A DNA stretch of 58,109 nucleotides, from assembly GCA_020058285.1 (NCBI GenBank), contig JAGVEL010000008.1, positions 1 to 58,109 on the forward strand. The letters are read 5' to 3'. Below are positions 496 through 33,404 of the stretch, piece by piece. The translations under genes were made by a program, and so were the position numbers. The notes beneath the pieces are model-generated. The model ran no database searches, had not been told where the DNA came from, and saw only the letters and a program-made list of their open reading frames with translations. The DNA is from Candidatus Omnitrophota bacterium (GTDB lineage Bacteria; Omnitrophota; Gorgyraeia; JAHJTE01). Every line of letters begins with the position of its first letter. Position 1 is the first letter of the stretch.

Positions 496-651
496 ATGAA
501 TGCCCTTATGTCTTTTTTATAGCTTAAGCTGAATTGTCAAAAATCTTGCACTTGGTACTTAACCTTATATCTTTCAAAATTTTACCCCTCTGGGTAATTG
601 TAAACTATAACACAATAATTTTTTAGTGTCAAGGCTTTTTTTATTAAATTT

Positions 652-755
652 TACGCAAAAACGCAAAAAAAACCGCAAAAACGCAAAAAATTTATTTAAC
701 AATTTTGCGCCTTTGCGGTACGGTATATATACTGGTTTTTTGCGCCTTTGCGGTT
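652..755. repeat. Degenerate REP-like repeat patch (CGCAAAAA runs and two copies of TTTTGCGCCTTTGCGGT)
   Basis: 652-690 contains ACGCAAAAACGCAAAAAAAACCGCAAAAACGCAAAAAA. TTTTGCGCCTTTGCGGT occurs at 703-720 and 737-755 and is partly complementary to the first block. It is related to the GCCGCAAAGGCTTTTGCGGC hairpins of the other REP arrays. Confidence 0.45.
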
Positions 756-3700
756 ACTTATTCGCCTTATATTTTCCTGCACTCAACAGGATAAAGCTTC
801 TATCTTGTGTAGGTATCGATAGGCTGGAAAATTCCAGGCTAATTGATTGGTCCTTAACTGTAACTGCCGGCTTGTTATCCGCCTGCTCTAAAATCGAAAG
901 AACGTCTTTACCTTGAGAATGAACTGCGCGAAGTAATGGCAATTCGCTCTTTACCACTACTACTTGCTTTGAAGTATCTAGGCCAACAAAATCTACGCGA
1001 TGCGGTTTGGTCCATTCTATTTTTACTTTTAAATCACCCTTAACCTTATCCAGATATTTTTGAGGTATATTTACAGCCCACTCATCCCAGAATTGATGCG
1101 GATGCACCACTGAGATTTTCTGCCAATTCTTTTCATTCATTAAAACATAAATGTGCAAAGAATCATTACTATTGAGTATCGGCCTAGGCGGGCACTTTAA
1201 ATCTGTGCGCATAATAAGACGCGCTCCATTCTGCTTATCTTTAATTGACCCAAAATTCATTATTAAAACATCACCTTTTTCTCCATAATAACTATGCTCC
1301 TCATCATTTTCAATCTTATTCACTTTGACAAGTTGACTATTATTATTTTTGTCAATCGCCGAGAGTGCTACCGAGGGGTCCTTATAAGACAATATCTCGC
1401 CTTCGGGCGTTGGAGCAATATTTGTGCCTTTAGGATGATCTACCTGGATTAATTTTACCATATCAATCCAGCTAGTCTCATCTTCAGAATCAACAATATT
1501 AATCAGATATTTGTTATCCTTAGAAACTAGCGGCTTCATCAATTTATAATAATCCTTGTAATACATCGGATTTCCTGCAGGCAATATATCATTGTCTTTT
1601 ATAAATTGCGAACCGTTCCATGTGTAAATATAAGGACAAGACGTACGCCGTGGCTCGCCTGAACTAAATGGAGTAACTGTAATCGTGGCTTCAAACGGAA
1701 TAAAATTAGGTTTGGTTACAGTTAGATTCATTGTGCCGGCTGAATTAACATTTACATAAACCAACACCTGTCCATTTACGCCTGTCAACTCTGTACCAAA
1801 AGCATCATTATCCTTAAGGAATGTAACCCTTGCTCCTGAAACTGGCTGGCTATTACTATCAGTAACTGTAACAATATAACCGTTATACTGGATCATCGAC
1901 GGCACATATTGCACATTAAACTGTTGAGGCGTATCTGTCCAGATAGGCATTTCCGGATCGCCCAAGAGATTCAAGGTAAAAAGATTCTTCCTGAATTCGG
2001 CAACTGTATTCGGATCAAAATTTCCGTTGCCGGCAAAATCATTTACCATATCTAATTTCATATCATAAAGTGCCTGGCCAACGCTGGATTTACCTAAAGA
2101 GAAAATCTGCTCATTAAACCTGTACAGCTCTCCTAATCCGCCACCTTGGGAAGGCGAATTCCAACCTATCCAATAATAGTCTAACCTGGAATTGCCAATG
2201 AAAGCTACTCCCCAGTCATGTATAGGAATGGTATCTTCACCTCTTAGGATTGAATCACCTAGACAATAAATATGCCCATAAGGAGGCGTAGAAGTATGAA
2301 GATCAAATTTGCCATTGTCGCAAGATTCTGCAAACACAACTGACTGCTTAGAGCCATTAGCAATATTGTTCATAAAATATACAAATCTTTGTGCACTTGC
2401 GCCATTTTGATCTACTGAAGTCCACACGCTACCATGAGCAGACCATTCAATCAAAGCTTTGCCAGCTGATGCATAGGATATAAAATTTGCTTCAGTGAGA
2501 TTAGCATCTTTTGGATAGGTATTAAGAAAATTTAATCTAAAACTTGTTAAACCAGCAGCATCTAAAAAATCATTTTTAATGTACTGCATTACTGATGCAC
2601 CATCAGTGTAATCATCTAGTTTACCTCCACAAAGCAAAGCTTCTTTTGTCCATGAGCCTACTGGAGGAGTTTTTTCATAATTGATAATTTTATTAACTAC
2701 TTTACTAATATAAGAATAGCTATTTACCGGAATTCTGCCAACATAGGTATCTAGAATCCAACGAATATCATCAGCAGGTTCACCATAAATACCATTATTA
2801 TTAGTGTCCCAATCATAGATAAATGAATCAGCAACACTGCCGCCAGCACAATCAGCAAAATAATAATCAGCCGGGACTGTTTCTGTATCAATTGGATCAG
2901 GATGCCAAGTAACCGGGCCAACGTAACGGCTGGGTAATTTTACTCCTTCAGGCGGTGGATTAAATTCCGGCATGCCTGCGCCTTGCTCGCCGGCAATCAA
3001 TAACCAGTCAAATTTCGGGCTATAAAACGGGTTGTTCGGAGGATTTACACTAGCTTCAGTTAAGAATTTCCTGATTTTTTCCTGCAGATCTGCACCGGTG
3101 TAATTTGCCTCAATATCTTCTACAGTATAAACCTTGGCTGGAATACCTTTTTTAGTCTTCCAATCAGCTAGGGGTTGAGCTGCATTGACGTTTGCAGCCA
3201 AAGTAATAATCGCATATTTTATCGGAACCTGGTCAATTGGAATGAAGGAAACGCTTTGAGTTTGTGTTGGAGATTTTAAAGCCTGGTTTTCAGAATAATT
3301 ATAAATTATGTTTTCGGCGAGTTTATCAAAAGCATCGGTTCTTTTTGCCTGCATTTCGCTATTTAATTTAGCTTTAGTTTCGTCAAGCGTATATTGAATT
3401 CTAATCGTAAAAACCTCATTAAATTTAAGCTCATTGGTTCTTAAATTTTGGATTAAAGGATTTATGCCTACGCAGATTAAACGATGGCCTTTAAGAAAAG
3501 ATTCTCCGAGATTTTTAAAAATACCTTCGGGAAAAGTAGCCAAAGTATATTTTGCTCTTGCTGCTGCTAAATTAGGCTTTACTGGTGTAGTGTCATTATT
3601 AGGTGCCATACCTTGGAATGCAGCTAAGTTTAACACCTGGCCCAAAGAGCGGGAATTAGTGCTAACCAGGCTAACGCTTACATCCTTAGCATTAAACGGA

Positions 3701-3966
3701 ATCTCAAAATAATATTTCTTATGCGGCAGAAGCGGTAAGCCTAGCACAGTATTAAGGCCAAAGCCTTTAATCTCATAATAAGCCTTGCCTCCTACGTCGC
3801 GTACAGTAAATTCCGGAATTGAAACAGAGTATTCTTTCACTATCGGAGCAGCAGAAGAGTCCAGCGCATTAAATATGAAAATAAAGCTAAAAACGAAAAA
3901 AAATGTAATAGAAATAATCAATCTCTTATTCATTTTAATTGTCCCCTTTTTAATAAAAAATCGCAA
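754..3966 (-). CDS. Secreted clan CD / family C25 (gingipain-like) cysteine peptidase with an Ig-like linker and a C-terminal module shared with the 556-aa pilin fusion
   Basis: The N-terminus looks like a signal peptide (KRLIISITFFFVFSFIFIFNALDSSAAP); an alternative ATG lies at 3933. The motif pair WSAHGS...(37 aa)...FAESCDNGKFD parallels the gingipain catalytic TGHGS...FDVACVNGDF. The His511 codon is 2434-2436 and the Cys549 codon is 2320-2322. Residues ~695-765 resemble a CarboxypepD_reg/Ig-like fold. Residues 777-1070 are homologous to the C-terminus of ORF 4735..6405. Confidence 0.8.
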   Translation of the reverse strand: MRFFIKKGTIKMNKRLIISITFFFVFSFIFIFNALDSSAAPIVKEYSVSIPEFTVRDVGGKAYYEIKGFGLNTVLGLPLLPHKKYYFEIPFNAKDVSVSLVSTNSRSLGQVLNLAAFQGMAPNNDTTPVKPNLAAARAKYTLATFPEGIFKNLGESFLKGHRLICVGINPLIQNLRTNELKFNEVFTIRIQYTLDETKAKLNSEMQAKRTDAFDKLAENIIYNYSENQALKSPTQTQSVSFIPIDQVPIKYAIITLAANVNAAQPLADWKTKKGIPAKVYTVEDIEANYTGADLQEKIRKFLTEASVNPPNNPFYSPKFDWLLIAGEQGAGMPEFNPPPEGVKLPSRYVGPVTWHPDPIDTETVPADYYFADCAGGSVADSFIYDWDTNNNGIYGEPADDIRWILDTYVGRIPVNSYSYISKVVNKIINYEKTPPVGSWTKEALLCGGKLDDYTDGASVMQYIKNDFLDAAGLTSFRLNFLNTYPKDANLTEANFISYASAGKALIEWSAHGSVWTSVDQNGASAQRFVYFMNNIANGSKQSVVFAESCDNGKFDLHTSTPPYGHIYCLGDSILRGEDTIPIHDWGVAFIGNSRLDYYWIGWNSPSQGGGLGELYRFNEQIFSLGKSSVGQALYDMKLDMVNDFAGNGNFDPNTVAEFRKNLFTLNLLGDPEMPIWTDTPQQFNVQYVPSMIQYNGYIVTVTDSNSQPVSGARVTFLKDNDAFGTELTGVNGQVLVYVNVNSAGTMNLTVTKPNFIPFEATITVTPFSSGEPRRTSCPYIYTWNGSQFIKDNDILPAGNPMYYKDYYKLMKPLVSKDNKYLINIVDSEDETSWIDMVKLIQVDHPKGTNIAPTPEGEILSYKDPSVALSAIDKNNNSQLVKVNKIENDEEHSYYGEKGDVLIMNFGSIKDKQNGARLIMRTDLKCPPRPILNSNDSLHIYVLMNEKNWQKISVVHPHQFWDEWAVNIPQKYLDKVKGDLKVKIEWTKPHRVDFVGLDTSKQVVVVKSELPLLRAVHSQGKDVLSILEQADNKPAVTVKDQSISLEFSSLSIPTQDRSFILLSAGKYKANK

Positions 3967-4049
3967 GTTTCATCTTGCGATCATCTGTGGAATTAGACTT
4001 ATTTGATCTTTTAGCCATACTTTTTATCCATAAGTGACTGGTAGCTAAA

Positions 4050-4078
4050 AGTATACACGCTAAAAGCTGCTTTGTCAA
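4050..4078 (-). promoter_or_regulatory. Sigma70-type promoter for the C25 peptidase gene
   Basis: The minus strand reads TTGACA (4073-4078), a 17-nt spacer, then TATACT (4050-4055), about 85 nt upstream of the ORF start. Confidence 0.5.
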
Positions 4079-4146
4079 GCAAGAACCACCAACTGGTGCT
4101 TGGTTTTTGCTTGATGCCGCAAAAGCTTTTGCGGCGCAAGGAAAGG
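4076..4146. repeat. Single REP-like unit (two hairpins)
   Basis: The sequence is CAAGCAAGAACCACCAACTGGTGCTTGGTTTTTGCTTGATGCCGCAAAAGCTTTTGCGGCGCAAGG. It has the same architecture as the units at 11377-11615 and 32675-32918. Confidence 0.7.
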
Positions 4147-4180
4147 TTTATAAAAAGTTTAAAAAAGTATTCTATCGATC

Positions 4181-4714
4181 TCATTCCGGTCTAATAATCC
4201 GCTCAACTGCTGCTGCAACGCCTGAACCGCCTACACTAATCCACGCAGCGCCAGGTATAGCATCACGATAAAAAATACCTGTTTGGTCAACCTTAAACGC
4301 AAACCTGCCAGTAATATTGTACGCTTTAGGCTCAGCAATTGCGCTGTAGGTATTGGCGGAAAATGACTCTTGTTCTATTCTAAAATTATACCCACCTTTT
4401 GAGCCAGCTCGTAATAATTCATCAATTGAAAGTGTGGGATTAACAATAACCAGTTGTGTCAAATCCTGTGGGTAAGTTTTATATAAAGTCCGGTAAACCT
4501 CCATAGCCGCAGAAATCTTGCCTAATGAGGCAAGTGCACTAGTTTCTTTTGCATGGATATAGAGGTTTACTAAATGAGGCAGGCTCAACGCAACCAAGCC
4601 AACTATCAAACCAATAACTATGATTGCCTCAATGAGAGTAAAACCCTTGATTTTTAATCTGTGCAATTTTGTTTTTAAAATCTGTGTAATCATAATTTTA
4701 ATCTCTGTAATCAA
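4181..4714 (-). CDS. Type IV pilin-like protein (prepilin N-terminal cleavage/methylation motif)
   Basis: It has a KG|FTLIEAIIVIGLIVGLVAL class III signal with Glu+5. The globular part is paralogous to pilA and to the N-terminal third of the 556-aa protein (SALASLGKISAAMEVYR..YPQDLTQL; GYNFRIE...ITGRFAFKVDQTG). The real start is probably the internal ATG near 4693. Confidence 0.8.
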   Translation of the reverse strand: MITEIKIMITQILKTKLHRLKIKGFTLIEAIIVIGLIVGLVALSLPHLVNLYIHAKETSALASLGKISAAMEVYRTLYKTYPQDLTQLVIVNPTLSIDELLRAGSKGGYNFRIEQESFSANTYSAIAEPKAYNITGRFAFKVDQTGIFYRDAIPGAAWISVGGSGVAAAVERIIRPE

Positions 4715-4734
4715 GGGCGGCGTTTTTTGACGCC

Positions 4735-6405
4735 CTATTTTTTCAATTGTTTATACCAACCCTCGCTAACAAATATGTAATCTATTGCTTCTCTTCTCAT
4801 TAAGCTTTGTTTGCTTGGGCTAGCAAATTTCAAGCTAATTTCATCGCCTTTATTCATAGCGGCATAACGATTATCTGAAAGCTTTAATAAATTTAATACA
4901 TCTCCGGCTCTATTGTGTTTAGCCTCGAGTAAAGCTAACTCTTTAACTTTAATTGGCACTTGCTTAGACTCATCTAAAAGCACAAAATCTAGTTTGTGCT
5001 CATCTCTCCAGGTAACCTTTATCTTTAGATTGCCTTTTACTTTATCCTTAAATGCAGCTAAATCAACTGCCCAGATATCCCAGTTTTCATGAGGATGGAT
5101 AACAGCTATTTCTTTCCATTCTTTACCTGAGACTAATAGTTCTATATGGATAGACTTAAATTCAAGGCACTCTTCCGCCTGACAAACTGGTACGCAGCCT
5201 GCCCCGTAACAACTGCTACATGGCTTACCAATACAATCATCTGGAATGCATCCCTCACCAGGGCATTCAGAGCATGGTTGCCCCACACACGGACCCGCTT
5301 GAGCAGCAAAGGCATCTTCCAAATCTGAACTTAAAATAAGGCGTAAATCTTTCTGGGTGTTTTTAACCAAACCAAAATCAAAAGTGATAAAATCTCCAGT
5401 AACACCGTGATAATTACCATTATCTTTACTGGCAACTAATTTTAAGACATCCTTGCCTTTTTTATCCGCAGCGGTAAGAGCCTTAGTCAAATTCTTGTTC
5501 TCAAAAGTAACAATCTTACCTTCTGGAGTTGGTGCAATCTTCACAGATTGCGGATGGATAACTTCTAATAAGCTAAGCCTATCCAGGTGAGATTTTTCAT
5601 CCAATGGCTCAATAATCTTAAACAGCAACTCACCCTGCTTATCCATTTTTGGAGCCTTGGTTAACTTATAATAATCAGTATATTCACCGGATTTGCCTCC
5701 TGGAATAATATCATTATCTTTAACAAATTGTTTTCCATCCCATGTATGAATATAAGGACAGCTGCCACCAGAACCACCAGTGCAGCCTGTGCCATTACAG
5801 ATAGAACAAGGTATACCAGTACAATCTTGCCCACCACTAGTGCAGCCTGCGCCATTACAGATAGAACAAGGTATACCAGTACAATCGGGAGTTGTCCCTG
5901 AACCTCCTCCACCCTCAACACCCACTGCAGTCCAAGGGCCACCTGCAGGTCCACCAGCAATAGTAGCATAATATGCGCTGCCATTTGCTTCCTGCTCGCT
6001 TGAGCCTATTTTAAAATAACGATTTCCAGTAACGCCAAATTGAGTCGGGTCAGCAAAAATCCTAAAGGCATAAGTCGGCACAACATCACTTTCAGTTGAA
6101 ACCCTAAAAGTATAACCCTGTTTTTGGCCGCTTGTTGCCCAAGCTAAATCCATCAAAGGCGGCTGGGTATTACGCAACTGGGTAAAAGTTGTGGGATATG
6201 TACCAAACATAGTGCGGTAAGCTTCAAATGCACCAGCAAGCTTATAAAGATTGACTAATGCTGCACTTTCATTATTTACCAACTTAGCCCGCAAAAAATT
6301 CGGTATTGCTATTGCCATCATCACCACTACCACCAACGACACAACAATTAACTCTACAGTATGAAACCCGGTTTTCAATATTTTCTTATTCATTTTGCAC
6401 CTCAT
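4735..6405 (-). CDS. Pilin-like fusion protein: prepilin N-terminus and pilin globular domain, Gly/Cys-rich linker, and a ~340-aa C-terminal module shared with the C25 peptidase
   Basis: It has a TG|FHTVELIVVSLVVVVMMAIAIPNF prepilin motif. Residues 1-165 are paralogous to pilA. Residues 175-208 and 372-413 carry four C-x4-CxxCxGxG-C units. Residues 216-556 align colinearly with residues 777-1070 of ORF 754..3966. Confidence 0.85.
   Translation of the reverse strand: MRCKMNKKILKTGFHTVELIVVSLVVVVMMAIAIPNFLRAKLVNNESAALVNLYKLAGAFEAYRTMFGTYPTTFTQLRNTQPPLMDLAWATSGQKQGYTFRVSTESDVVPTYAFRIFADPTQFGVTGNRYFKIGSSEQEANGSAYYATIAGGPAGGPWTAVGVEGGGGSGTTPDCTGIPCSICNGAGCTSGGQDCTGIPCSICNGTGCTGGSGGSCPYIHTWDGKQFVKDNDIIPGGKSGEYTDYYKLTKAPKMDKQGELLFKIIEPLDEKSHLDRLSLLEVIHPQSVKIAPTPEGKIVTFENKNLTKALTAADKKGKDVLKLVASKDNGNYHGVTGDFITFDFGLVKNTQKDLRLILSSDLEDAFAAQAGPCVGQPCSECPGEGCIPDDCIGKPCSSCYGAGCVPVCQAEECLEFKSIHIELLVSGKEWKEIAVIHPHENWDIWAVDLAAFKDKVKGNLKIKVTWRDEHKLDFVLLDESKQVPIKVKELALLEAKHNRAGDVLNLLKLSDNRYAAMNKGDEISLKFASPSKQSLMRREAIDYIFVSEGWYKQLKK
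5773..5886. repeat. Near-perfect 60-bp tandem duplication inside the pilin-fusion CDS
   Basis: 5781-5826 and 5841-5886 are identical except for one position (T/C at the 10th base). They encode DCTGIPCSICNGAGC and DCTGIPCSICNGTGC. Confidence 0.9.
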
Positions 6406-6451
6406 TTTAATCTGCTTAATCTCCTTATTTATCCTCTAATCTCATTATTAT

Positions 6452-6582
6452 AAAAAAATCCTATCCTTCATTTCCAAGGATAGGATTGTACATTTTGCTT
6501 TCGGTAACCAGACTATCCTTTTAAAGAAGGACTCTTGGCTTTGCGCCCTATGCTTACGCATAGTTTGCCCTTATCGAGCATA
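6452..6582 (-). promoter_or_regulatory. c-di-GMP-I (GEMM-I) riboswitch #1 with intrinsic terminator, in the leader of the pilin-fusion operon
   Basis: The minus-strand RNA reads GGGCAAACUAUGC-GUAA-GCAUAGGGCGCAAAGCCAAGAGUCCUU...AAGGAUAGUCUGGUUACCGA. It shows the conserved GGCAAAC / GNRA-capped P1 hairpin / GGRCGCAAAGC / GGUUACCGA blocks of GEMM-I, close to the V. cholerae Vc2 aptamer as I remember it. It is followed by AAUCCUAUCCUU-GGAAAUG-AAGGAUAGGAUU-U7 (6452-6488). Confidence 0.85.
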
Positions 6583-6600
6583 CCTTCATTACCAAAATAA

Positions 6601-6629
6601 AGTATACCACAATAAAGGCCTTATTTCAA
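6601..6629 (-). promoter_or_regulatory. Promoter driving riboswitch #1
   Basis: The minus strand reads TTGAAA (6624-6629), a 17-nt spacer ending in TGG (extended -10), then TATACT (6601-6606). The GTGGTATACTTTA box recurs upstream of riboswitch #3. Confidence 0.5.
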
Positions 6630-6791
6630 GTATCTTATAAATATATACTTAATCTAACTAATTGCTATACAAGGTGTTACAATATTTTTATAAACTTGTA
6701 AATTTGTACTTTTCACCTTGCGTCAGACTTCTATTTATGATAGACTAATTAAGATTAAAAGTCAATATAATCTTCTATTTTCTCCTAATAT

Positions 6792-8507
6792 ATGAAAAAA
6801 ATTCCTGTTGACAAGAATTTGCTAAAAGTAACCTCGGTCAGCATTATAATCGCTTTGTTCTATTTCTTTTCATTTAGCAACATACCTAGTTTAAGCTTCC
6901 TGCAATTAAAAACCGCAGACTTTTTTAAGCAGCTCACCTATGCCATAAAACCAAAGCCAAACGAGATAAAAGACCTATGCGTGATTAAAATTGATGATGA
7001 ATCATTTATGGCCTTAAATAAAAAGTGGCCTTGGCCGCGCAGTATTATCGCCGAATTCTTAGAAAATTTGAATGAATATAAACCGAAAATTATAAGCTTA
7101 GACTTATCATTTATCGGAGAAAGTGAAAGCGTGGATGCTGATTTAAGGTTAGCTCGGGCAATCAAGAATTGTGGCAATGTAATCTTAAGTGCTTACATTA
7201 CTCCTGATGGCACTTTTAACAAGCCTTTTTTACCTTTAAGAGAAGCAGCTTTAGATTTTGGATTTGTAAATAAACCCCGGGATATAGACCTGATTGTGCG
7301 CCGGGTAAGAGTAATTCTGCCAACAGAAAAAAACCAGGAACAATTTGACTTGTCTTTTGGCCTAAAGAGTGTGTTACATTACTATTCAAACTCAGAAAAA
7401 ATTCATTTGGCTAAAATTAAGAATAATTCCTTTCTGATCAAAAATCTGGGTAATGAAAAAACAAAAAAACTGCTGTTAAGTACGGATAATCAAGGAACCG
7501 CAGCCTTAAATTTCCAGGCAAAAGATAAAGATTTCATTTCTGAATCATTCTATAAAATACTTAACAAAAGCGCGGACGCAAAATTGATTGAAGGCCGGCT
7601 GATAGCTATTGGCGTAACTGCTGAAATATTCCATGATGTCTACCCTACGACCTTAGGGATTCTCTCTGGCGTCAGCTTGAATGCCAATGAGATGTTGATG
7701 TATTTATCCGGAAACTTCCCAAATAAAGTGCCGGATAACTGGCAATTGTTTTTGATTGTTATTGCTGCGCTTTGGTCTTCAATATTAACCTATAAATTTA
7801 AAGTGGTTAAAGGCCTTATAAGCCTTTTAACCCAGCTTGTAATCTTATCGCTACTAGCCCTAGCTGCTTCTTATTTTAATTTTAGATATGATTATTTTGG
7901 CCCGATTTTTATTGCCTGCTTTATTTATGCCGGAACAGAAACTTATAAATATGGCCATTTGATTATTGAAGCTACAATATTAAAGAAGCTTTCGATTACC
8001 GACGGGTTAACCGGCTTGTACTTACACCGCTATCTAATATTAAGGCTGGATCAGGAATTCAAGAAGGCTTACGATGAAAATTCTCAATTATCGCTGTTGA
8101 TTATGGATATTGACCACTTTAAAAGAATTAATGACACCTATGGCCATGAACAAGGAAATGTGGTGTTAAAAAATATCGCCAAAATTATTCAGGATGCAAG
8201 CCGAAAGCTAGATATTGTTGCCCGCTACGGCGGAGAGGAATTCTGCGCAATATTACCCAGCACGAATGAATTAGGTGCAAATATCTATGCCCAGCGTTTA
8301 AGAAAAACGATTGAGGAGTTTAATTTCCCTTATAAGGAAAACCAGCCACTAAAGGTAACGATTAGTATCGGAATTGCCTCGTCAAAACAGACCTTGGCCC
8401 AAAATCCTGCAGAGCTTATCTCATTTGCGGATAAAGCCCTTTACCAGGCAAAAGAAACTGGAAGAAATACGGTATGCACTTTTGTCCCGCCTCCGGAAAA
8501 AATTTAA
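6792..8507 (+). CDS. Membrane diguanylate cyclase: CHASE2 sensor domain, TM segments and a GGDEF domain (active-site GGEEF, intact RxxD I-site)
   Basis: The CHASE2 signature is IKIDDESFMALNKKWPWPRS...LDLSFIGES, followed by 3-4 hydrophobic helices. The GGDEF domain shows DGLTGLYLHRY...MDIDHFKRINDTYGH...RKLDIVARYGGEEFCAILP...KALYQAKETGRN. Confidence 0.88.
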   Translation: MKKIPVDKNLLKVTSVSIIIALFYFFSFSNIPSLSFLQLKTADFFKQLTYAIKPKPNEIKDLCVIKIDDESFMALNKKWPWPRSIIAEFLENLNEYKPKIISLDLSFIGESESVDADLRLARAIKNCGNVILSAYITPDGTFNKPFLPLREAALDFGFVNKPRDIDLIVRRVRVILPTEKNQEQFDLSFGLKSVLHYYSNSEKIHLAKIKNNSFLIKNLGNEKTKKLLLSTDNQGTAALNFQAKDKDFISESFYKILNKSADAKLIEGRLIAIGVTAEIFHDVYPTTLGILSGVSLNANEMLMYLSGNFPNKVPDNWQLFLIVIAALWSSILTYKFKVVKGLISLLTQLVILSLLALAASYFNFRYDYFGPIFIACFIYAGTETYKYGHLIIEATILKKLSITDGLTGLYLHRYLILRLDQEFKKAYDENSQLSLLIMDIDHFKRINDTYGHEQGNVVLKNIAKIIQDASRKLDIVARYGGEEFCAILPSTNELGANIYAQRLRKTIEEFNFPYKENQPLKVTISIGIASSKQTLAQNPAELISFADKALYQAKETGRNTVCTFVPPPEKI

Positions 8508-8540
8508 AATTAGGAATTAGGAATTAATAGGAAGGTTTTC

Positions 8541-9749
8541 TTAAACGGTGATTTTGAGGAAGCGTGTCTTGCCGATTTTTAAAATGCCACTTCGGCTTAT
8601 TGTAAATTTTTCGTCTTTTATTGGCTGGTTATCAAGCCGAACTGCTCCATCGCGGATAAGCCTGCGGCCTTCGTTTCCAGAAGTTACCTGCCTAGTTTTA
8701 ACCAAGACTGATAAAATATCCTCTGAAACTTTGTCTTTTAGTTTATATTCCTGAATATCCTGAGGTACATTACCCGCGCTAAAAACCGATTCGAAATTTT
8801 TCCTGGCTTTGAGCGCTACTTGATTTGAGTAAAATCTGGCAGTTAAACCTTCTGCGAGATTAAGTTTTGCCTGTTTAGGGTGCATCTTTTTAACCGCGTC
8901 CAGATTATCTTCAGTAAGCAGATCATAATAATTCACCATCAACTCATCAGATATCGACATAATCTTGCCAAAGATCTGATCCGCAGGCTCGGTAATTGAA
9001 ATATAGTTATTGTAGCTTTTTGACATCTTTAATGCGCCGTCTAAACCAATGAGCAATGGCAGGGTAATTACAACCTGCGGGCTCTGACCATAGGCTCGTT
9101 GAATATCTCTGCCGACTAAGAGATTAAATTTCTGGTCACTGCCCCCTAGCTCAATATCCGCAGACAACACAACTGAATCATAGCCTTGCATCAGGGGATA
9201 TAAAAACTCTAAAACACTTATTGGCTTACCGGCTTTTAATCTGCTTGAGAAATCGTCACGCTCAATCAAGCGCGCAACATTATATTTAGATGCTATTTCT
9301 AAGAATTTATCTAGGTTTACGCCTTGCTTTGAATCTGCCTGTTTAAAAAACCATTGGGAATTATAACGGACTTCCAGGCTTTTTTTATCTGTAAGCAGGA
9401 CTTTAGAAACCTGCTTGAGGTAAGTTTTGGCATTTTTAGAAACCTCATCACGGGAAAGAATTTTTCTGGTTTGCGATTGGCCAGAAGGATCGCCGATAAG
9501 CGCAGTATAATCGCCAATCAACAGAATTGCTTTGTGCCCTAAATCCTGAAAGGTTCTTAATTTACGCAGTAATACAGTGTGTCCGAGATGGATATCGCTC
9601 GTGGTAGGATCAAACCCTGCTTTTACTCGCAAGGGCTTGTTTAATTCTAAAGAATATTGAATCTTCTGAGCTAACTCTTCTTCGTTGATAACCTCTAAGC
9701 TAGCGCGCTTAATCTTTTCAACTTGTTCTTTAACTTTTATCTGCTTCAT
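8541..9749 (-). CDS. tyrS: Tyrosine--tRNA ligase
   Basis: It has the class I motifs HLGH (DIHLGHTV) and KMSKS, a C-terminal S4-like domain (RRLIRDGAVRLDNQPI), and a length of 402 aa. Confidence 0.9.
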   Translation of the reverse strand: MKQIKVKEQVEKIKRASLEVINEEELAQKIQYSLELNKPLRVKAGFDPTTSDIHLGHTVLLRKLRTFQDLGHKAILLIGDYTALIGDPSGQSQTRKILSRDEVSKNAKTYLKQVSKVLLTDKKSLEVRYNSQWFFKQADSKQGVNLDKFLEIASKYNVARLIERDDFSSRLKAGKPISVLEFLYPLMQGYDSVVLSADIELGGSDQKFNLLVGRDIQRAYGQSPQVVITLPLLIGLDGALKMSKSYNNYISITEPADQIFGKIMSISDELMVNYYDLLTEDNLDAVKKMHPKQAKLNLAEGLTARFYSNQVALKARKNFESVFSAGNVPQDIQEYKLKDKVSEDILSVLVKTRQVTSGNEGRRLIRDGAVRLDNQPIKDEKFTISRSGILKIGKTRFLKITV

Positions 9750-11292
9750 TTGAAACTATAGCGCTTAAGCCAATCTTCATTGCCTCAATATCAACCTTGA
9801 TAATCTTTGCTCTTATTTTATCCCCGGGCTTCAATTGATCTTTTATACTATTTTCAATTTCGGTGTTAAAAATTAAGCCTTCTAAATCTTCTCTTAACTT
9901 TACAAACACCCCGAAATTGGTTGCCTGGATAACCTCAACTTCTAGCTCCTTACCCACGGTAAATTCTTCAGCTATTTTTGACCAGGGATTTTCAGTCAGT
10001 TGCTTTAAGCCTAAGGCGATACGTTGATTTTTGGGATCAACGGATATGATAACCACTTCTATCTTTTGCCCTTTTTTTAAAATCTCCTGCGGATGATTAA
10101 TCTTCTTGGTCCAGGACATATCTGAAACATGAATCATGCCCTCCAAGGTTTCGGGTAATTCTATGAATGCTCCGTAATCGCTAAACCCTCTAATCACACC
10201 CGTAACCTTGTTACCCGGTATATATTTATCGCTAACCTGCTCCCAGGGGTTTGGTTCAAGCTGCTTTATGCTCAAGGAAATTCTTTTACTTTGTTTCTCG
10301 ATACTTAAAATCTTCGCTTCAACAACATCTCCGATAACGAATGTTTCTTTTAAATCGTTTATCCTCTTGCTCCAAGAAATCTCAGAGATGTGAATAAGGC
10401 CTTCTATGCCTTTTTCCAGCTCAATAAATAAGCCGTAATTTAAAATATTGACAATCTTGCCTTTTATTTTAGTGTCAATAGGAAATTTTTCTTCTATCCC
10501 CTCCCAGGGATCAGGACTGCGCTGCTTTAAGCCAAGAGAAACCTTACCATTATCTTTGTCCATATTTAAGATTGCCACTTCAATTCTATCGCCAATCGCC
10601 ACAACCTCGGATGGATGTGAAACGCGCGACCAACTCATATCAGTTATATGCAGTAAGCCGTCAACTCCGCCCAAATCAACAAATGCGCCAAAATCAGTAA
10701 TTGCCTTAACCTGGCCCTGGCGGACATCTCCAACTTTTATCTCTTCCCAAAGTTTGCGTTTGGCAGATTCTTTTTCTTTGGCTGCGGCGTCTTTTCTGGA
10801 AACAACCAGGCTGCGGCGTTGATGATTAATCTTAACAACCTGAAACTTAAACATCTGGTTAATTATTTCAGACATTGGCTTTCCCCTAAACGTAGATAGA
10901 GACTCAGGTAAAAAAGCATCAATGCCCATAATATCCACTGTATAGCCGCCCTTAATCTTACTTCTCACTCTGCCGTCAAATACCTGTTCGCCCTGGACAA
11001 CCTTTACAATCTGCTCCCAGCCTTTAATCTTGCTAACCTTTTCTTTTGAAAGAACAACCATCCCGTCTTCGCTCTCTAAAGACTCGATCAATACCTCAAC
11101 GACATTACCCAATACCAACTCTTCGCTTCTAAACTCCAGCATCGGCACAGCTCCTTCAGATTTAAAGCCGATGTCAATCATTACTTCTTTTGGCCCGATG
11201 CTGATAATCTTTCCTTTAACAATCTGGCCTTCGCTAAAATTAGTAAAACTTGTTGAATATAAATCTGCTAACGAGTCATTCTTTGAAAACAT
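9730..11292 (-). CDS. rpsA: 30S ribosomal protein S1 (six S1 domains)
   Basis: It contains repeated S1 OB-fold units (G.V..I..FGAFV.L..G..GL.H.S..SW). Confidence 0.92.
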   Translation of the reverse strand: MFSKNDSLADLYSTSFTNFSEGQIVKGKIISIGPKEVMIDIGFKSEGAVPMLEFRSEELVLGNVVEVLIESLESEDGMVVLSKEKVSKIKGWEQIVKVVQGEQVFDGRVRSKIKGGYTVDIMGIDAFLPESLSTFRGKPMSEIINQMFKFQVVKINHQRRSLVVSRKDAAAKEKESAKRKLWEEIKVGDVRQGQVKAITDFGAFVDLGGVDGLLHITDMSWSRVSHPSEVVAIGDRIEVAILNMDKDNGKVSLGLKQRSPDPWEGIEEKFPIDTKIKGKIVNILNYGLFIELEKGIEGLIHISEISWSKRINDLKETFVIGDVVEAKILSIEKQSKRISLSIKQLEPNPWEQVSDKYIPGNKVTGVIRGFSDYGAFIELPETLEGMIHVSDMSWTKKINHPQEILKKGQKIEVVIISVDPKNQRIALGLKQLTENPWSKIAEEFTVGKELEVEVIQATNFGVFVKLREDLEGLIFNTEIENSIKDQLKPGDKIRAKIIKVDIEAMKIGLSAIVSNEADKS

Positions 11293-12214: not shown

Positions 12215-13627
12215 TTAGATCATTTTCTTGCCTAAAGAAATCAATTTTTCTGCCCGGTCTTTAGTTTTGGCTTCCGAGTAAACCCGGACGATTGGCTCAG
12301 TACCTGAGCCGCGCAGCATTAGCCAAGAGTCATCCTCGCAGATAAACTTTAAGCCGTCTTTTTTGTCTATTTTAACAACTTTTTTACCTAGTAACTCTTC
12401 CGGAATTTTAATATTTGCTAAACTAAACATCTCTACACTACTTAACGCCAGGCTATCCTTGGTATAATAAAAAGAGCCAAATTCACGCTTAAGGTCAGCT
12501 AAAAGATTATTTATGTTGCAGCGCCTAAAGGCAAGCATTTCTAACAAAAGTAGGCCGGCTAGCGAACCATCGCGCTCTGGTATATAATTTTTAAATCCAA
12601 TGCCGCCTGCCTCTTCTCCGCCAATCAGGACATCTCCCTCTTTCATTAATTTACTTATATATTTAAATCCGACTGGCGTTTCAAACAATTTTAACTTTAA
12701 GCGCGTGCATATTTTATCAATCATTGACGAGCCGACTATCGTCTTAACCACTGCACCAGTCATTTTCCTATCCTGGACAAGATGCAAAATCAAGAGGCAA
12801 AGGATAACCTGTGGGCTGATAAATTCTCCGTTAGAATCCATAGCCGCAATCCTATCTGCATCGCCATCAAGCACCAAGCCTAAGTCAAATTTTTCCTTTT
12901 TCATTCGGCTAATCATCGGTGCCAAATTTTCCGGCAGAGGCTCTGGCCGGCTGCCATCAAACGATGGATTAATATCACTGCGCATCAAGGATAAATTTAC
13001 ATTACTTTCTTCAACGCAATCCGCAATAAACCCATTTCCGCTTCCGTGCATAACATCAACCAAAACCCTTAGCTTAGCCCTGTTTATAGTTTTTAAGTCC
13101 AAATAGCTTTTCAAGAATTTTCGATAGTCGTTAGTTAAGTCGCAAACTTTAAAATTGCTTGAGGATTTCGAAGCTATCAAATCATGCTTTTTAACATCGG
13201 ATGTTTTTAGCAATTTTTCAATAGCGCTGGTTATCTCAGTATCTGCTGCTCCTCCGGAACTATCTTTAATTTTAAACCCGTTAAACTCCGGCGGATTGTG
13301 GCTGGCAGTAATAACAACGCCAAAATCACAATGCAATTTTTTCACCGCAAAGCTTAATGCCGGAGTAGGCAAAAATTTGTCGGAAAATATTACTTTTATG
13401 TTGTTAGCAACGCAAACCTTAGCTACCTCTAAGGCAAAATCCTTAGATAGAAACCGGGTATCATAACCAATAGCACAGGTTAAATCCGGGCGGGCTAAGG
13501 CAGCCTTAAAATAATCACAAGTTGCCTGGGTTAATATTGAAACGTTTTCAAATGTAAAATCGCGGCCGATAATTGCTCTCCAGCCGTCTGTTCCAAATTT
13601 AATTGCTTCAAAGCTAGCCGCTGGCAT
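12215..13627 (-). CDS. Alpha-D-phosphohexomutase (phosphoglucomutase/phosphomannomutase family)
   Basis: It has the active-site TASHNPPEFNGFK, the metal loop DGDADR and the sugar loop GGEEAGG. Confidence 0.85.
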   Translation of the reverse strand: MPAASFEAIKFGTDGWRAIIGRDFTFENVSILTQATCDYFKAALARPDLTCAIGYDTRFLSKDFALEVAKVCVANNIKVIFSDKFLPTPALSFAVKKLHCDFGVVITASHNPPEFNGFKIKDSSGGAADTEITSAIEKLLKTSDVKKHDLIASKSSSNFKVCDLTNDYRKFLKSYLDLKTINRAKLRVLVDVMHGSGNGFIADCVEESNVNLSLMRSDINPSFDGSRPEPLPENLAPMISRMKKEKFDLGLVLDGDADRIAAMDSNGEFISPQVILCLLILHLVQDRKMTGAVVKTIVGSSMIDKICTRLKLKLFETPVGFKYISKLMKEGDVLIGGEEAGGIGFKNYIPERDGSLAGLLLLEMLAFRRCNINNLLADLKREFGSFYYTKDSLALSSVEMFSLANIKIPEELLGKKVVKIDKKDGLKFICEDDSWLMLRGSGTEPIVRVYSEAKTKDRAEKLISLGKKMI

Positions 13628-14261
13628 GTTTAAGACTCCTTATCGCGCTGGCATAATCCTTTGATTTAAAGATAAAATTCCCTGCAACCAAAATATTTGC
13701 CCCGCAGGAAATCAATCGCCGAGCATTATCAGAATTAACTCCACCATCAACTTCAATGTCAAACTTGAAATATTTTCTTAATGTTTCTATTTTTTTGTAG
13801 ACTATCGGCATAAATTTCTGGCCGCAGAACCCAGGGTTTACACTCATTAAAAGAATAAAATCCAGAAAGTTAACAGCTGGCAGTATTTTTCCGAGGCTCG
13901 TGCCCGGATTTATCGCCAAGCCTAACCTTACGCCTTTTTCGTTTAGGGCTTTAGCTTTGGATTTAAAATTAGTCAAGGGAACAGTCTCTACATGCACGGT
14001 AATTATATCCGCACCTGCATCCACAAATGAATCCAAAAGTTTGAAGGGTTTTTTAATCATCAAATGCACATCCAGGGGTAATTTTGTGCTCTTCTTAATC
14101 GCCGCTACCTGATTTGGCCCTAAAGTAATATTCGGAACAAAGTGGCCGTCCATAACATCTATGTGAATAAGATCCGCCCCGGCTGCTTCAATTCTTTTTA
14201 ACTCTTTGGCCAAACAACTAAAATCACAAGCCAATATTGATGGCGCAACAAGTATTTTCAC
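13614..14261 (-). CDS. rpe: Ribulose-phosphate 3-epimerase
   Basis: It contains HIDVMDGHFVPN, DVHLM and MSVNPGFCGQKF. Confidence 0.9.
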   Translation of the reverse strand: MKILVAPSILACDFSCLAKELKRIEAAGADLIHIDVMDGHFVPNITLGPNQVAAIKKSTKLPLDVHLMIKKPFKLLDSFVDAGADIITVHVETVPLTNFKSKAKALNEKGVRLGLAINPGTSLGKILPAVNFLDFILLMSVNPGFCGQKFMPIVYKKIETLRKYFKFDIEVDGGVNSDNARRLISCGANILVAGNFIFKSKDYASAIRSLKHASG

Positions 14262-14830
14262 TTATATAATCCTTTTCTGTTAATAAACGCTAACACCTTT
14301 TTATCTAATAAATATTCTACGCCTTTTCCGGTATTAATGCGCTTTCTGACATCTGAGGAAGAAATGTCAATCTGCGGGATATTGATAAATTTAATGCCCT
14401 TGTGGATCAATTTTACGCAAAATCCCGGCCGGGCTGCCACAACAAATTTAGCCAGTTTTTTTATTTTATCAAAATTCTTCCAGCGGCCTAAATCAGATAT
14501 GGCATCAGAACCGGCTAGAAAAAAAAGTTCGGCACTTTTACCTTTAAATTTACGCCGCATTATATCTAATGTCTCGACTGTATAAGATTTACCGCCACGT
14601 TTTATTTCCAAATCTGATATAGAAAATTTCTTTGCGCCGCGTAATGCAAGGCGTAGCATTTTTAGCCTGTCTATGCCCCTAGGAACCCAGCGAGAAGATT
14701 TGAGCGGTTGGATATTAGCCGGAACAAAAATAATTTTATCAAGCCTTAAAATCTCAAGTGCTGACTGAGCCAAAATCATATGGCCAAGATGCACTGGATT
14801 AAATGTTCCGCCGAGGATTCCAATTTTCAT
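14258..14830 (-). CDS. nadD: Nicotinate-nucleotide adenylyltransferase
   Basis: It has the N-terminal GILGGTFNPVHLGH motif and an ISSSDVR-type motif. Confidence 0.9.
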   Translation of the reverse strand: MKIGILGGTFNPVHLGHMILAQSALEILRLDKIIFVPANIQPLKSSRWVPRGIDRLKMLRLALRGAKKFSISDLEIKRGGKSYTVETLDIMRRKFKGKSAELFFLAGSDAISDLGRWKNFDKIKKLAKFVVAARPGFCVKLIHKGIKFINIPQIDISSSDVRKRINTGKGVEYLLDKKVLAFINRKGLYK

Positions 14831-14833
14831 TAT

Positions 14834-16099
14834 TTAATTAGTTCTAATCTGGCCGTTGCCGTAAACTTGGTATTTATATGTCGTAAGCTCTTCAACAGCC
14901 ATTGGGCCGCGGGCATGAATCTTATCCGTGGAAATTCCCATCTCCGCACCCATGCCGAATTCATAGCCATCGCTAAACCGGGTAGAAGCATTGACAAAAA
15001 CACAGGCTGAATCAACCTCAGTTAGAAATTTTTCAGCCGCAAGTTTATCGTTAGTAATAATGCTGTCCGAGTGGTGCGAGCCATATGTATTAATATGCTC
15101 AATCGCCTCATCTAAATCTTTAACAACATCAACTGCTAAGATTAGATCCAAGAATTCTGTTTTAAAATCAGCATTTTTTGCAGCCTTTAAACTAGAGTCA
15201 AATTTCCTGACAGCAGCTGTTCCTCTTATCTGGACATTATTCTGCTTAAATTGCTCAAGCATGCGCGGTAAAAATTTAGAAGCAATCTCCTTATGCACGA
15301 GTAAAGTTTCCATTGCGTTACATACGCCGGGGCGCTGAACTTTAGCATTTAAGCATACCTTAAGCCCAAGCTCTAAATCAGCATCCTTATCCATAAATAT
15401 TGTACAAATTCCTTTGTAATGTTTTATCACCGGTATCCGAGACTTTTTAACTACTTCTCTAATTAAACCTTCTCCGCCCCTAGGAATGACCAAATCAATA
15501 GAATCAGTTAACTTTAACAATATATCAACAGATTTTCTGTCAGTATTCTTGATTAATTGAAAGGCTTCGCTGGGAAGGCCTTTTTGCTTAATCGCCCCTA
15601 TCAGACAATTATAAATTGCGATATTTGAATTTAACGCAGCGCTTCCGCCTCTTAAAACAAGAGCGTTTGAGCTCTTTAAACATAAACCAATGCAATCGCT
15701 GGTAACGTCTGGTCTTGATTCATAGATTATTGCTATAACTCCGATAGGCACTCTGACTTTTTTTATTTCTAATCCTGATGCAACGCGCCAAGATTTAATT
15801 ACCTCAAGCATAGGATCTTTGATATTCGCTATTGATTTTAGAGATTGCGCCATTTTTTCTAAACGCGCCCCATCTAACGTCAAACGCTCAATGAAACTTT
15901 TAGATTGATTTTGTTCGCTGGCAAGCTTTAAATCAATATTATTCTGTTCAATAATTGACAGCTTATTATCCAATAAACTCTGAGCCATTGCCAGAATAGT
16001 ATCCTTTTTCACTTCGGCCTTAACTTTTGCCAGAGAAAAACTCAGCCTTTTGGCAAGCCTAGCTATTGCAACTATCTCTTTTTTGAGTGTGTTGTCCAT
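14834..16099 (-). CDS. proA: Gamma-glutamyl phosphate reductase
   Basis: It belongs to the aldehyde dehydrogenase-like ProA family (VCNAMETLLVH; VNASTRFSDGYEFGMGAE) and lies next to proB. Confidence 0.92.
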   Translation of the reverse strand: MDNTLKKEIVAIARLAKRLSFSLAKVKAEVKKDTILAMAQSLLDNKLSIIEQNNIDLKLASEQNQSKSFIERLTLDGARLEKMAQSLKSIANIKDPMLEVIKSWRVASGLEIKKVRVPIGVIAIIYESRPDVTSDCIGLCLKSSNALVLRGGSAALNSNIAIYNCLIGAIKQKGLPSEAFQLIKNTDRKSVDILLKLTDSIDLVIPRGGEGLIREVVKKSRIPVIKHYKGICTIFMDKDADLELGLKVCLNAKVQRPGVCNAMETLLVHKEIASKFLPRMLEQFKQNNVQIRGTAAVRKFDSSLKAAKNADFKTEFLDLILAVDVVKDLDEAIEHINTYGSHHSDSIITNDKLAAEKFLTEVDSACVFVNASTRFSDGYEFGMGAEMGISTDKIHARGPMAVEELTTYKYQVYGNGQIRTN

Positions 16100-27565: not shown

Positions 27566-27583
27566 GATCTCACCTGCCTTGAA

Positions 27584-27708
27584 CAAAAAAACCTATTTGC
27601 CAGTAGCAAATAGGTTTTTCCCTATCGGCAACTGGCTGTCCCGAAATTCCGGGACCCTTTAGCTTTGCGCCCCATGCTTACGCATGGTTTGCCCTTTTCA
27701 GATAGGCT
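27584..27708 (-). promoter_or_regulatory. c-di-GMP-I (GEMM-I) riboswitch #2 with intrinsic terminator, upstream of the PilX-like gene
   Basis: The minus-strand RNA reads CCUAUCUGAAAAGGGCAAACCAUGC-GUAA-GCAUGGGGCGCAAAGCUAAAGGGUCCCGGAAUUUCGGGACAGCCAGUUGCCGAUAGG. It is followed by AAACCUAUUUGC-UACU-GGCAAAUAGGUUU-U tract (27584-27617). Confidence 0.85.
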
Positions 27709-32975: not shown

Positions 32976-33404
32976 TTATTCAATCGGAGAAGATGTTGAA
33001 GTAGCTGTTCCGCCAGTGCTATATCTAACTACGCCACTTTCATCAACAAAGAAGTATCTAGTACCGGTTGTCTGAGGAGTAGTCGGAGATGCTGTTGCTG
33101 TAAATGCATTGGTACTTCCTAACAAAGCAAAATTATAACCCTGCTTTGCTCCGCTACCTAATACGCTGTCAATATATGGAGGAGTTGCACTAGATAAGCT
33201 GTTTAGACCAACAGGATACGTCGGGTTAGCAGACCGAAAACTCTGAGCACCGGTTGAAAGTGTCTGCATTGCAGCGATTGCTGCTGACTCATTAGCATTT
33301 AATCTTGCACGCAGTAAGTTAGGTATGGCGATTGCGGCCAATAACGCAATAATAGCAACTACAATCATGATTTCAACCAAGGTAAAACCGCGTCTGTTTT
33401 TCAT
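32976..33404 (-). CDS. pilA: Major type IV pilin
   Basis: It begins MKNRRG|FTLVEIMIVVAIIALLAAIAIPNLLRAR, a canonical class III signal with Glu+5. It is 142 aa, has a strong RBS (AAAGGGGGA) and its own terminator, and ends in a Ser/Thr-rich C-terminus. Confidence 0.9.
   Translation of the reverse strand: MKNRRGFTLVEIMIVVAIIALLAAIAIPNLLRARLNANESAAIAAMQTLSTGAQSFRSANPTYPVGLNSLSSATPPYIDSVLGSGAKQGYNFALLGSTNAFTATASPTTPQTTGTRYFFVDESGVVRYSTGGTATSTSSPIE

Follow-up and report, generated by a model that had tools for sequence, protein, structure and literature searches.

Modular type IV pilins that present adhesive modules are established in Streptococcus sanguinis, where PilB carries a vWA module and PilC a ConA-like lectin, and many modules of modular pilins escape database signatures (Raynaud et al. 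2021, PMC8179133). A predicted pilin of this kind is encoded in the 58,109-nucleotide (nt) contig of a Candidatus Omnitrophota bacterium analyzed here (JAGVEL010000008.1; hereafter the window), close to a secreted, gingipain-like C25 peptidase that ends in the same ~295-residue domain. This domain is named the CPY domain here after its invariant Cys-Pro-Tyr/Phe start. Like the described modular pilins, the pilin fusion opens with a class III signal peptide and an entire small pilin; a linker then leads to a large functional module at the C terminus, one that is found on non-pilin proteins as well. The expected role is alike too: the filament would present a ligand-binding function, probably at its tip. 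Unlike in the S. sanguinis proteins, its module has no annotated family, its host is of the diderm Omnitrophota type with secretin-containing type IVa machinery, Cys-rich CxxxxCSxCxGxGC motifs occur in the linker and in one module loop, a riboswitch of the c-di-GMP (cyclic dimeric GMP) type lies in the leader, and the same module ends the neighboring protease.

Several other systems share part of this design. CofB and CofJ of enterotoxigenic Escherichia coli and TcpB and TcpF of Vibrio cholerae each pair a tip minor pilin that has β-rich C-terminal domains with a secreted protein from the same locus, which is a precedent for coupling. Their secreted partner binds through a short peptide and has no domain in common with the pilin, whereas the window encodes a homologous domain on both proteins. 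The peptidase follows the plan of the gingipains RgpA and Kgp and of other C25 enzymes, in which a His/Cys dyad domain is followed by an Ig-like domain and by non-catalytic β-sandwich C-terminal extensions. The haemagglutinin/adhesin extensions of RgpA and Kgp target the enzyme. Unlike the gingipains and PorU, the window peptidase has neither a Cleaved_Adhesin domain nor a type IX secretion C-terminal domain (CTD); its extension is the CPY domain, and that of its orthologue in related locus L001 is a dockerin. As in the modular cellulosome with its dockerin/cohesin pairs and carbohydrate-binding modules (CBMs), one non-catalytic C-terminal module occurs on many secreted enzymes, with passenger exchange in locus L004 and the true dockerin in L001. 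The only scaffold candidate, unlike in a cellulosome, is the pilin. C-terminal sorting domains such as the type IX CTD and PGF-CTERM also lie mostly at the extreme C terminus of diverse secreted cargo, but they consist of ~80 residues (CTD) or a short transmembrane tag, whereas the CPY domain is far longer, is internal in ~16% of cases, has no transmembrane segment and occurs in both archaea and bacteria. The Hint domains of Hedgehog proteins and inteins likewise are C-terminal and begin with Cys (rarely Ser) after Gly; the CPY domain differs from them in having no Hint structure among its 50 best-listed Foldseek matches, in showing no TxxH or HN motifs in its alignment and in being twice the Hint size.

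The CPY domain is promiscuous and usually the last domain, and it stands behind many unrelated secreted passengers in archaea and Omnitrophota. Of its two paralogues in the window, one has been joined to a complete type IV pilin; the second ends the C25 peptidase. The reading favored here, which is given about an even chance of being correct, is that the two are old paralogues of a large, unnamed extracellular all-β family that would act as a non-catalytic binding (targeting or tethering) module and serve as a common handle of pili and secreted enzymes.

Two neighboring genes share a C-terminal module

The open reading frame (ORF) listing of the window places the pilin fusion, a small pilin and the C25 peptidase as three co-directional genes on the minus strand. 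The pilin fusion is a 556-aa ORF (4735–6405, −) with a probable ATG start at 6393 that gives a 552-aa protein (P0189), and the peptidase is a 1070-aa ORF from TTG (754–3966, −) with a probable ATG start at 3933 that gives 1059 aa (P0005). BLASTP joined peptidase residues 778–1070 and pilin fusion residues 217–555 in a single colinear alignment with 128 of 343 identities (37%), 56% positives and E = 7e-65. The first-pass annotation of this DNA had proposed by eye a colinear module of ~300 aa common to both proteins, and had named an insignificant alignment as a possible refutation. The computed E value is far beyond chance, and the coordinates given at that stage (nt 754–1640 and 4738–5760) agree with residues 777–1070 and 216–556.

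Module copy 1, of the passenger type, starts with CPYIYTWNG and comprises peptidase residues 777–1070 (757–1638, −), as supported by BLASTP, a hidden Markov model (HMM) and AlphaFold2. Copy 2, of the pilin type, starts with CPYIHTWDG and comprises pilin fusion residues 216–556 (4738–5760, −; BLASTP and HMM). The alignment of the copies contains 54 gaps, mostly due to a 54-residue Cys-rich insertion in the pilin copy (residues 363–416; 5158–5319, −). The insertion maps to the sole internal loop with a predicted local distance difference test (pLDDT) score <50 in the AlphaFold model of the peptidase copy. A six-frame HMM scan found these two copies and no others in the 58-kb window. Recent intragenomic duplication as the origin of the pair was ruled out, because the copies are only 37% identical and each type has its own orthologues at 52–71% identity. 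By these comparisons the pair consists of old paralogues, one of each functional type.

The CPY domain is a large and promiscuous family

When 1.84 billion cluster representatives were searched exhaustively by HMMER with a profile made from six sequences, 3448 of them had the module at E ≤ 1e-3, 1494 at E ≤ 1e-10 and 393 at E ≤ 1e-30. This search overturned the impression of a rare module left by a word-indexed protein search, which gave 4 matches only. Counts of position, carrier and conservation rest on ~200 fetched members. The module ended ≤10 residues from the C terminus in 155 of 189 complete modules, and >30 residues followed it in 30 (~16% internal); no hydrophobic tails that would mark membrane anchors came after these 30 internal modules. 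Carriers ranged from 334 to 2228 aa, most with classical signal peptides, and prepilin N termini were present in ~8 of the 152 top representatives. A Pfam scan of 63 members placed PKD, PPC, CARDB, β-helix/NosD, Peptidase_S8, Peptidase_C1, Laminin_G_3, FG-GAP and other domains before the module, and no Pfam family covered the module itself in any of the 63.

Searches for a described relative were empty. Pfam and NCBIfam scans of both window proteins at E ≤ 1 gave no match on the module, and profiles from 6- and 28-sequence alignments run against PDB sequences returned nothing or chance MANF matches at E 0.4. These results bear out the initial inability to name a family. Species-representative genomes of GTDB were scanned by pattern for the module and, separately, for the peptidase; neither scan gave a relative. 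A full-text literature search for the module motifs and the riboswitch variant gave nothing relevant; type IVa pili are named in the Omnitrophota overview paper, whereas this module, C25 and c-di-GMP are not. What is truly new is the family of domains, in view of its size, the lack of an entry for it in Pfam, NCBIfam and PDB, the Cys-Pro with which it begins and its occurrence across domains of life. With thousands of 50%-identity clusters beyond these three databases, the family is a clear candidate for curation and structural work.

This breadth bears on the proposal, made from the common module, of a pilus-coupled protease. Nearly all of the 3448 representatives have no pilin N terminus and the passengers are many and unrelated, so that inference falls; a module carried by thousands of unrelated secreted proteins does not by itself show a dedicated pilus-protease device. 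The annotators had also written that membership in a common, well-characterized C-terminal domain would count against a pilus link. The domain is indeed common on many unrelated proteins without pilin linkage, but it is not well characterized.

Named members of the family come from DPANN archaea (Nanoarchaeia, Micrarchaeota), Thermoplasmata/Thermoplasmatota, 'Euryarchaeota' and Candidatus Omnitrophota/Omnitrophica, and are labeled 'hypothetical' or after their passenger; looking up the cluster names once more yielded no further taxonomy. One unlabeled member is encoded on a 447-kb contig beside the archaeal marker genes FTR and PurP-type DUF1246/DUF1297. Many of the lineages bearing the CPY domain are thought to be host-associated. 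In a neighbor-joining tree both window copies fall within a subclade of 14 representatives with the motif HPHxxWDxW, made up of 5 pilin fusions and 9 passenger proteins. The passengers of this subclade are C25; S8 with FG-GAP, β-propeller and β-helix; FG-GAP with two LamG; LVIVD with Ig; β-helix/NosD; TSP_3; and LamG. A LamG protein labeled Candidatus Micrarchaeota (P0009, NCBI MFH0817545.1) has an Omnitrophota passenger-type module with HPHQLWDEW that is 53% identical to the peptidase module, which reflects either cross-domain transfer or a mis-binned contig.

Conserved residues and predicted fold of the module

Alignments of 28 sequences and an HMM alignment of ~200 sequences were used to describe the domain, which is ~295 residues long. 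The first residue is Cys in 192 and Ser in 5 of 198 modules, and the next is Pro in all 198. This N-terminal Cys is the sole Cys in 36 modules and is therefore not kept for a conserved disulfide. The module usually follows a Gly/Pro/Ser-rich linker, often as GGGG|CPYV; among the 78 modules in which a motif located the start, Gly makes up 25% of the 8 preceding residues. Polar positions under strong conservation are C9, D23, N24, D40, E61, D70, D78-H79, R151-D153, H213, D216, D221, H240-S241, D254 and R280. The many conserved Asp and Asn residues would fit Ca-dependent lectin-like modules.

AlphaFold2 confidently modeled the whole peptidase copy as an all-β domain with pLDDT 85.4 and a predicted template modeling (TM) score, pTM, of 0.84. 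Modeling of the N-terminal half alone (residues 1–160; 1180–1659, −) with a deeper alignment lost strands and gave pLDDT 74 and pTM 0.49. The worse model of the isolated half suggests that the module is one intertwined unit rather than two beads, with both halves contributing to one interlocked fold. Foldseek searches against PDB and BFVD returned only generic β-sandwich/jelly-roll relatives at TM ≤ 0.33 on the query (0.24–0.33 for the best), among them a CBM (2c26), an Eph ligand-binding domain, APC10, ConA-like proteins and phage tail/receptor-binding proteins. Hint or intein folds were absent from the 50 best-listed Foldseek matches and Pfam gave no Hint match, nor were TxxH and terminal HN motifs seen in the module alignment.

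A modular type IV pilin carries one copy

The pilin part of the fusion covers residues ~1–165 (5911–6405, −), with the class III signal peptide KTG|FHTVE at nt 6352–6375. The N terminus, MRCKMNKKILKTG|FHTVELIVVSLVVVVMMAIAIP, has the charged leader ending in Gly, the hydrophobic +1 residue, the Glu at +5 and the ~20 hydrophobic residues that define this class. Its matches to NCBIfam models had E values from 4e-5 to 2e-4 for GspG/PilA and up to 2.5e-3 with ComGC included, all under the whole-protein cut-offs, and the ComP_DUS match in Pfam reached E 0.03 only. Over residues 1–162, identity is 31% with the adjacent small pilin (E 7e-24) and 38% with the product of a major-pilin-like gene at 32976–33404 (E 5e-19). 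By these comparisons the first ~162 residues of the fusion are a complete pilin, and the prepilin N terminus recognized at first pass, followed by a hydrophobic helix, belongs to a genuine type IV pilin.

A Cys-rich linker follows at residues 174–208 (5782–5886, −), with two copies of DCTGIPCSICNG(A/T)GC (DCTGIPCSICNGxGC) and then GGSGGS. The extra module of the fusion occurs on >140 non-pilin representatives among the 152 best matches, with signal peptides and unrelated passengers, the pattern expected of modular pilins. On this sequence pattern the fusion is a member of the already known class of modular type IV pilins. The pilin-type modules of four other pilin fusions are 52–55% identical to copy 2. 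The small pilin is a 177-aa protein (4181–4714, −) with the N terminus KG|FTLIE and weak N_methyl and GspG matches below the cut-offs; its gene lies always directly 3′ of the pilin fusion and was found in L001–L006. The window also codes for a secretin, PilM, PilN, PilO, PilC (T2SSF) and two PilB ATPases (T2SSE and MshEN), so that type IVa machinery is available. Of the window ORFs scanned, none was identified as a prepilin peptidase. With the fusion, an uncultivated and probably host-dependent phylum gains a well-supported modular pilin, which provides a concrete handle on what such pili bind.

The Cys-rich sequence CxGxPCSxCxGxGC occurs twice in the pilin linker and recurs in the pilin-type module, as the surface-loop insertion of 54 residues. 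Related CxxxxCSxCxGxGC motifs are present in the linkers of P0002–P0004, and L006 encodes beside minor pilins an 865-aa protein (4916–7513, +) that consists largely of CCEGCYxSSNCTDxCPSTS repeats. These motifs may be disulfide- or metal-stabilized spacers.

The other carrier is a C25 peptidase

The catalytic domain of the peptidase spans residues 251–674 (1945–3216, −) and matches Pfam Peptidase_C25 (PF01364) with 131.8 bits against a cut-off of 23, over profile positions 1–373 of 374. SAH511GS and AESC549DNG are invariant across three orthologues. His511 (nt 2428–2442 region) and Cys549 (nt 2311–2331 region) are taken to be the catalytic dyad from their place within the Pfam match and from general knowledge of the family, and both are present, in line with the intact dyad noted at first pass. 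A signal-peptide-like N terminus is visible. An Ig-like or carboxypeptidase-regulatory-like β-sandwich follows the catalytic domain at residues 695–766 (1669–1884, −), where sub-threshold Pfam matches to Big_1, CarboxypepD_reg and Peptidase_C25_C were obtained; the L001 orthologue reaches the Peptidase_C25_C cut-off. The orthologues in L001 and L002 are 59% identical to the window peptidase.

Identity with PorU is unsupported, with 34.1 bits against a cut-off of 420 for NF033707 and 14.9 against 450 for NF052324. Pfam scans found no Por_Secre_tail, the CTD of the type IX secretion system (T9SS), in the window proteins and no dockerin in the window peptidase. The sequence is that of a C25 enzyme with an unusual C-terminal extension.

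The closest word-indexed match, P0001 (contig in ENA ERZ1426824), is 259 aa long, 58% identical and begins inside the module. Overlapping genes of 118 and 165 aa precede it near the contig start, and P0001 is probably a frameshifted or fragmented orthologous peptidase and not a stand-alone module.

Related loci exchange the module and its passengers

The gene order TyrRS, divergent CHASE2-GGDEF, pilin fusion, small pilin, C25 peptidase and rRNA operon recurs in L001, L002, L004 and L005. Module-bearing peptidases are encoded in L004, L005 and L002, the last truncated where its contig ends. In L001 the orthologous peptidase (12535–15621, +) is 59% identical over residues 1–764 and has no module; its C terminus consists of two FN3-like repeats, recognized by eye without a Pfam match, and a Dockerin_1 domain (24.3 bits, cut-off 22.9). 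No cohesin-like partner or scaffoldin turned up, although no search was aimed at a cohesin partner of the L001 dockerin. L006 has a pilin fusion with a Thr-rich linker and a small pilin, with no adjacent C25 gene. The neighborhood linkage of pilin and peptidase noted in the window accordingly recurs as a three-gene cassette without being obligatory.

L004 contains an extra 1116-aa gene (7562–10912, +) between the peptidase gene and the rRNA operon, with six FG-GAP_3 and two Laminin_G_3 domains ahead of the module. This module and that of the peptidase in the same locus share 99.2% DNA identity over 906 nt. The copies differ at 7 of the 906 nt, which ruled out an assembly artefact as the cause of the duplication. 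L005 is 99.8% identical to L004 over the common cassette and does not have the extra gene, which looks like a recent passenger gain by recombination through the module. Domain shuffling appears to have been caught under way here, one strain having gained a passenger on a 99%-identical module and another showing a dockerin swap. The variants in L001, L004 and L006 show the module behaving as a handle that can be exchanged, and the pairing of pilin with protease as frequent and not obligatory.

Function of the CPY domain

The first-pass annotation had offered a common target-binding domain or a docking domain as the role of the module, and the former is the best reading. The passengers joined to the one module are unlike one another and a dockerin stands in its place in L001, which favors a tethering-type role. 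The CPY domain would recognize one kind of surface ligand. A pilus built by the window's type IVa machinery would therefore be alike in binding specificity to several of the lineage's secreted enzymes. Pili would attach to the very surface on which the enzymes act, and the link between pilin and protease would stem from the common handle and not from a dedicated two-part machine. An adhesion-type regulation would fit this role: the predicted riboswitch with its terminator-like hairpin, the GGEEF neighbor, the MshEN-containing PilB proteins and the pilus machinery would all belong to it. Several points weigh against target binding. The near-invariant first Cys, alone in 36 modules, and three well-conserved His are more typical of a catalytic, metal-binding or self-processing site; the L001 dockerin would favor tethering to the producer's own scaffold over an external target; the analogy to lectins or CBMs reaches only to the general fold class (TM ≤ 0.33); and taxonomic labels are available for ~10 family members only.

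Were the modules to bind each other, the pilin-borne copy would be a scaffold that recruits module-tagged enzymes (C25 peptidase, FG-GAP/LamG protein and others) onto the pilus in the manner of cohesin and dockerin. Such docking is unlikely, although it would account for the pilin fusion and module-bearing peptidase being conserved neighbors in the window, L002, L004 and L005, for the pilin-type and passenger-type modules forming separate, separately conserved groups inside one subclade, and for a bona fide docking module, the dockerin, replacing the module in L001. A precedent is the tip pilin CofB, named in PMC8179133, which has β-sandwich domains. CofB binds a secreted partner, CofJ. The family is mostly archaeal with no pilin partner there, so the conserved residues must serve a function independent of pilins. 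The pilin fusion also persists where the peptidase has no module (L001) or is not adjacent (L006), and the two genes have separate promoters. The breadth of the family, its mainly archaeal membership lacking pilin partners, the variants in L001 and L006 and the separate promoters also speak against any dedicated pilus-protease device. There is a similarly small chance that, under c-di-GMP control, the pilin-borne copy recruits C25, S8 protease and FG-GAP/LamG enzymes as a pilus-scaffolded display, or that an archaeal surface-binding module was captured by host-dependent Omnitrophota to aim pili and proteases at archaeal hosts. Docking of enzymes onto pili, or targeting of archaeal hosts, would if true introduce a principle new to surface display or predation.

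The conserved residues invite chemical roles as well. In self-processing or covalent attachment, which is quite unlikely, the first Cys (or Ser) would attack the preceding peptide bond in an N-to-S acyl shift and release or transfer the passenger, as Hint does at Gly|Cys. The near-invariant Cys-Pro start, a first Cys with no disulfide role in the 36 single-Cys modules, the Gly-rich linker that often reads GGGG|C, and the conservation of His79, Asp70 and Asp78 in the N-terminal half agree with such a reaction, whereas the absence of Hint or intein among the 50 best-listed Foldseek matches and of visible TxxH or terminal HN motifs does not. Pro at +2 is unusual for known acyl-shift sites, and P0013, P0118 and P0147 have the module almost directly after the signal peptide, with nothing to release. 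A metal-binding or enzymatic domain is improbable. It would use the conserved Cys, three His and several Asp (C9, H79, H213, H240/S241, D23, D40, D70, D78, D153, D216, D221 and D254) as a metal or active site that adds its own chemistry to pilus and enzymes, and the failure of the N-terminal half to fold confidently without the C-terminal half (pLDDT 74 and pTM 0.49 against 85 and 0.84) fits a site between the halves. No sequence or fold match to any enzyme family was obtained with Pfam, NCBIfam, PDB profiles or Foldseek, and the domain is a terminal appendage on proteins with catalytic domains of their own, which is typical of accessory modules. Very improbable is an export or sorting tag, a C-terminal recognition domain for secretion or surface attachment with the C25 peptidase as the tagged processing enzyme, comparable to PorU in type IX secretion. 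The position at the extreme C terminus of diverse cargo suggests it, as does the top NCBIfam match of the peptidase, the T9SS sortase PorU, likewise a C25 protein. That match scores 34 bits against a cut-off of 420, the 295-residue length is far above that of known sorting domains, 30 of 189 modules have >30 residues after them, and the family spans archaea and a diderm bacterium with different envelopes. In addition, the family tallies for the 63 other scanned members do not include C25, which is one passenger among many, and the pilin already has its own export and assembly route.

Regulation and the c-di-GMP context

Rfam places a c-di-GMP-I-GGC riboswitch aptamer (RF03167) in the leader of the pilin fusion gene (6499–6578, −; 69.7 bits, gathering score 59). 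It is followed by a terminator-like hairpin of 12 bp with a T-run (6457–6487, −), located between the aptamer and the pilin gene before the ribosome-binding site (RBS) and ATG, and probably its expression platform. A promoter-like element, TTGAAA-17-(TG)TATACT, lies upstream of the riboswitch (6601–6629, −; consensus match only). The same aptamer class precedes the pilin fusion in L001 and L006; L002 and L005 have weak 32-bit matches with an insertion in the same place, well under the 59-bit gathering score. The pilin fusion leader is predicted to be controlled by a riboswitch of the c-di-GMP type.

The peptidase gene has its own promoter-like element, TTGACA-17-TATACT (4050–4078, −; 11 of 12 consensus matches), and CTTGACAAA...GTATACTT together with TACCAG.C.CTT is conserved before the peptidase gene in the window, L001, L002 and L005. 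With the riboswitch and terminator-like hairpin before the pilin gene and a promoter-like element conserved in four loci before the peptidase gene, the initial description of adjacent transcription units is right, and co-regulation is not implied. The peptidase leader contains, between the RBS and the conserved promoter-like element, a hairpin with a T-run (3959–3982, −) whose conservation does not extend to L001, L002 or L005, and a GC hairpin without a T-run follows the small pilin gene (4113–4133, −).

The divergent gene upstream of the pilin fusion (6792–8507, +) encodes 571 aa with GGEEF at residue 480. The gene at the equivalent position in L001 and L002 has precomputed Pfam CHASE2 and GGDEF matches, and the window gene is a putative CHASE2-GGDEF diguanylate cyclase gene by synteny and its own GGEEF motif. 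The window contains three c-di-GMP-I-GGC aptamers (65–70 bits against 59) at 6499–6578 (−), 27623–27702 (−) and 33616–33693 (−), each in the leader of a pilus-related gene: the pilin fusion, a 505-aa DUF4900-type protein (26069–27586) heading a minor-pilin cluster, and the major-pilin-like gene at 32976–33404. In L006 two canonical c-di-GMP-I aptamers stand before a minor-pilin cluster and before a 203-aa secreted protein. The window also has tandem PilB-type ATPase genes with MshEN domains (35073–36773, −; 36779–38494, −) adjoining a HAMP-GAF-GGDEF gene (38948–40393, −). MshEN is a c-di-GMP-binding domain. The riboswitches, the CHASE2-GGDEF-type neighbor and the MshEN ATPases point to multi-level c-di-GMP control of the pilus. 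The modular pilin would sit in a complete regulatory circuit that comprises, besides the c-di-GMP-type riboswitch and the MshEN ATPases, a CHASE2-GGDEF neighbor assigned by synteny.

The 5′ part of a 16S rRNA gene (1–425, −; Rfam SSU_rRNA_bacteria, 375.5 bits) lies directly downstream of the peptidase gene and is a synteny marker outside the system. The same peptidase-to-rRNA arrangement is found in L001, L004 and L005. An ORF at 626–916 (+) between the rRNA and the peptidase gene is probably spurious, and the window rRNA is preceded by a promoter-like TTGACA-17-TATAGT (604–632) and a terminator-like hairpin (466–495).

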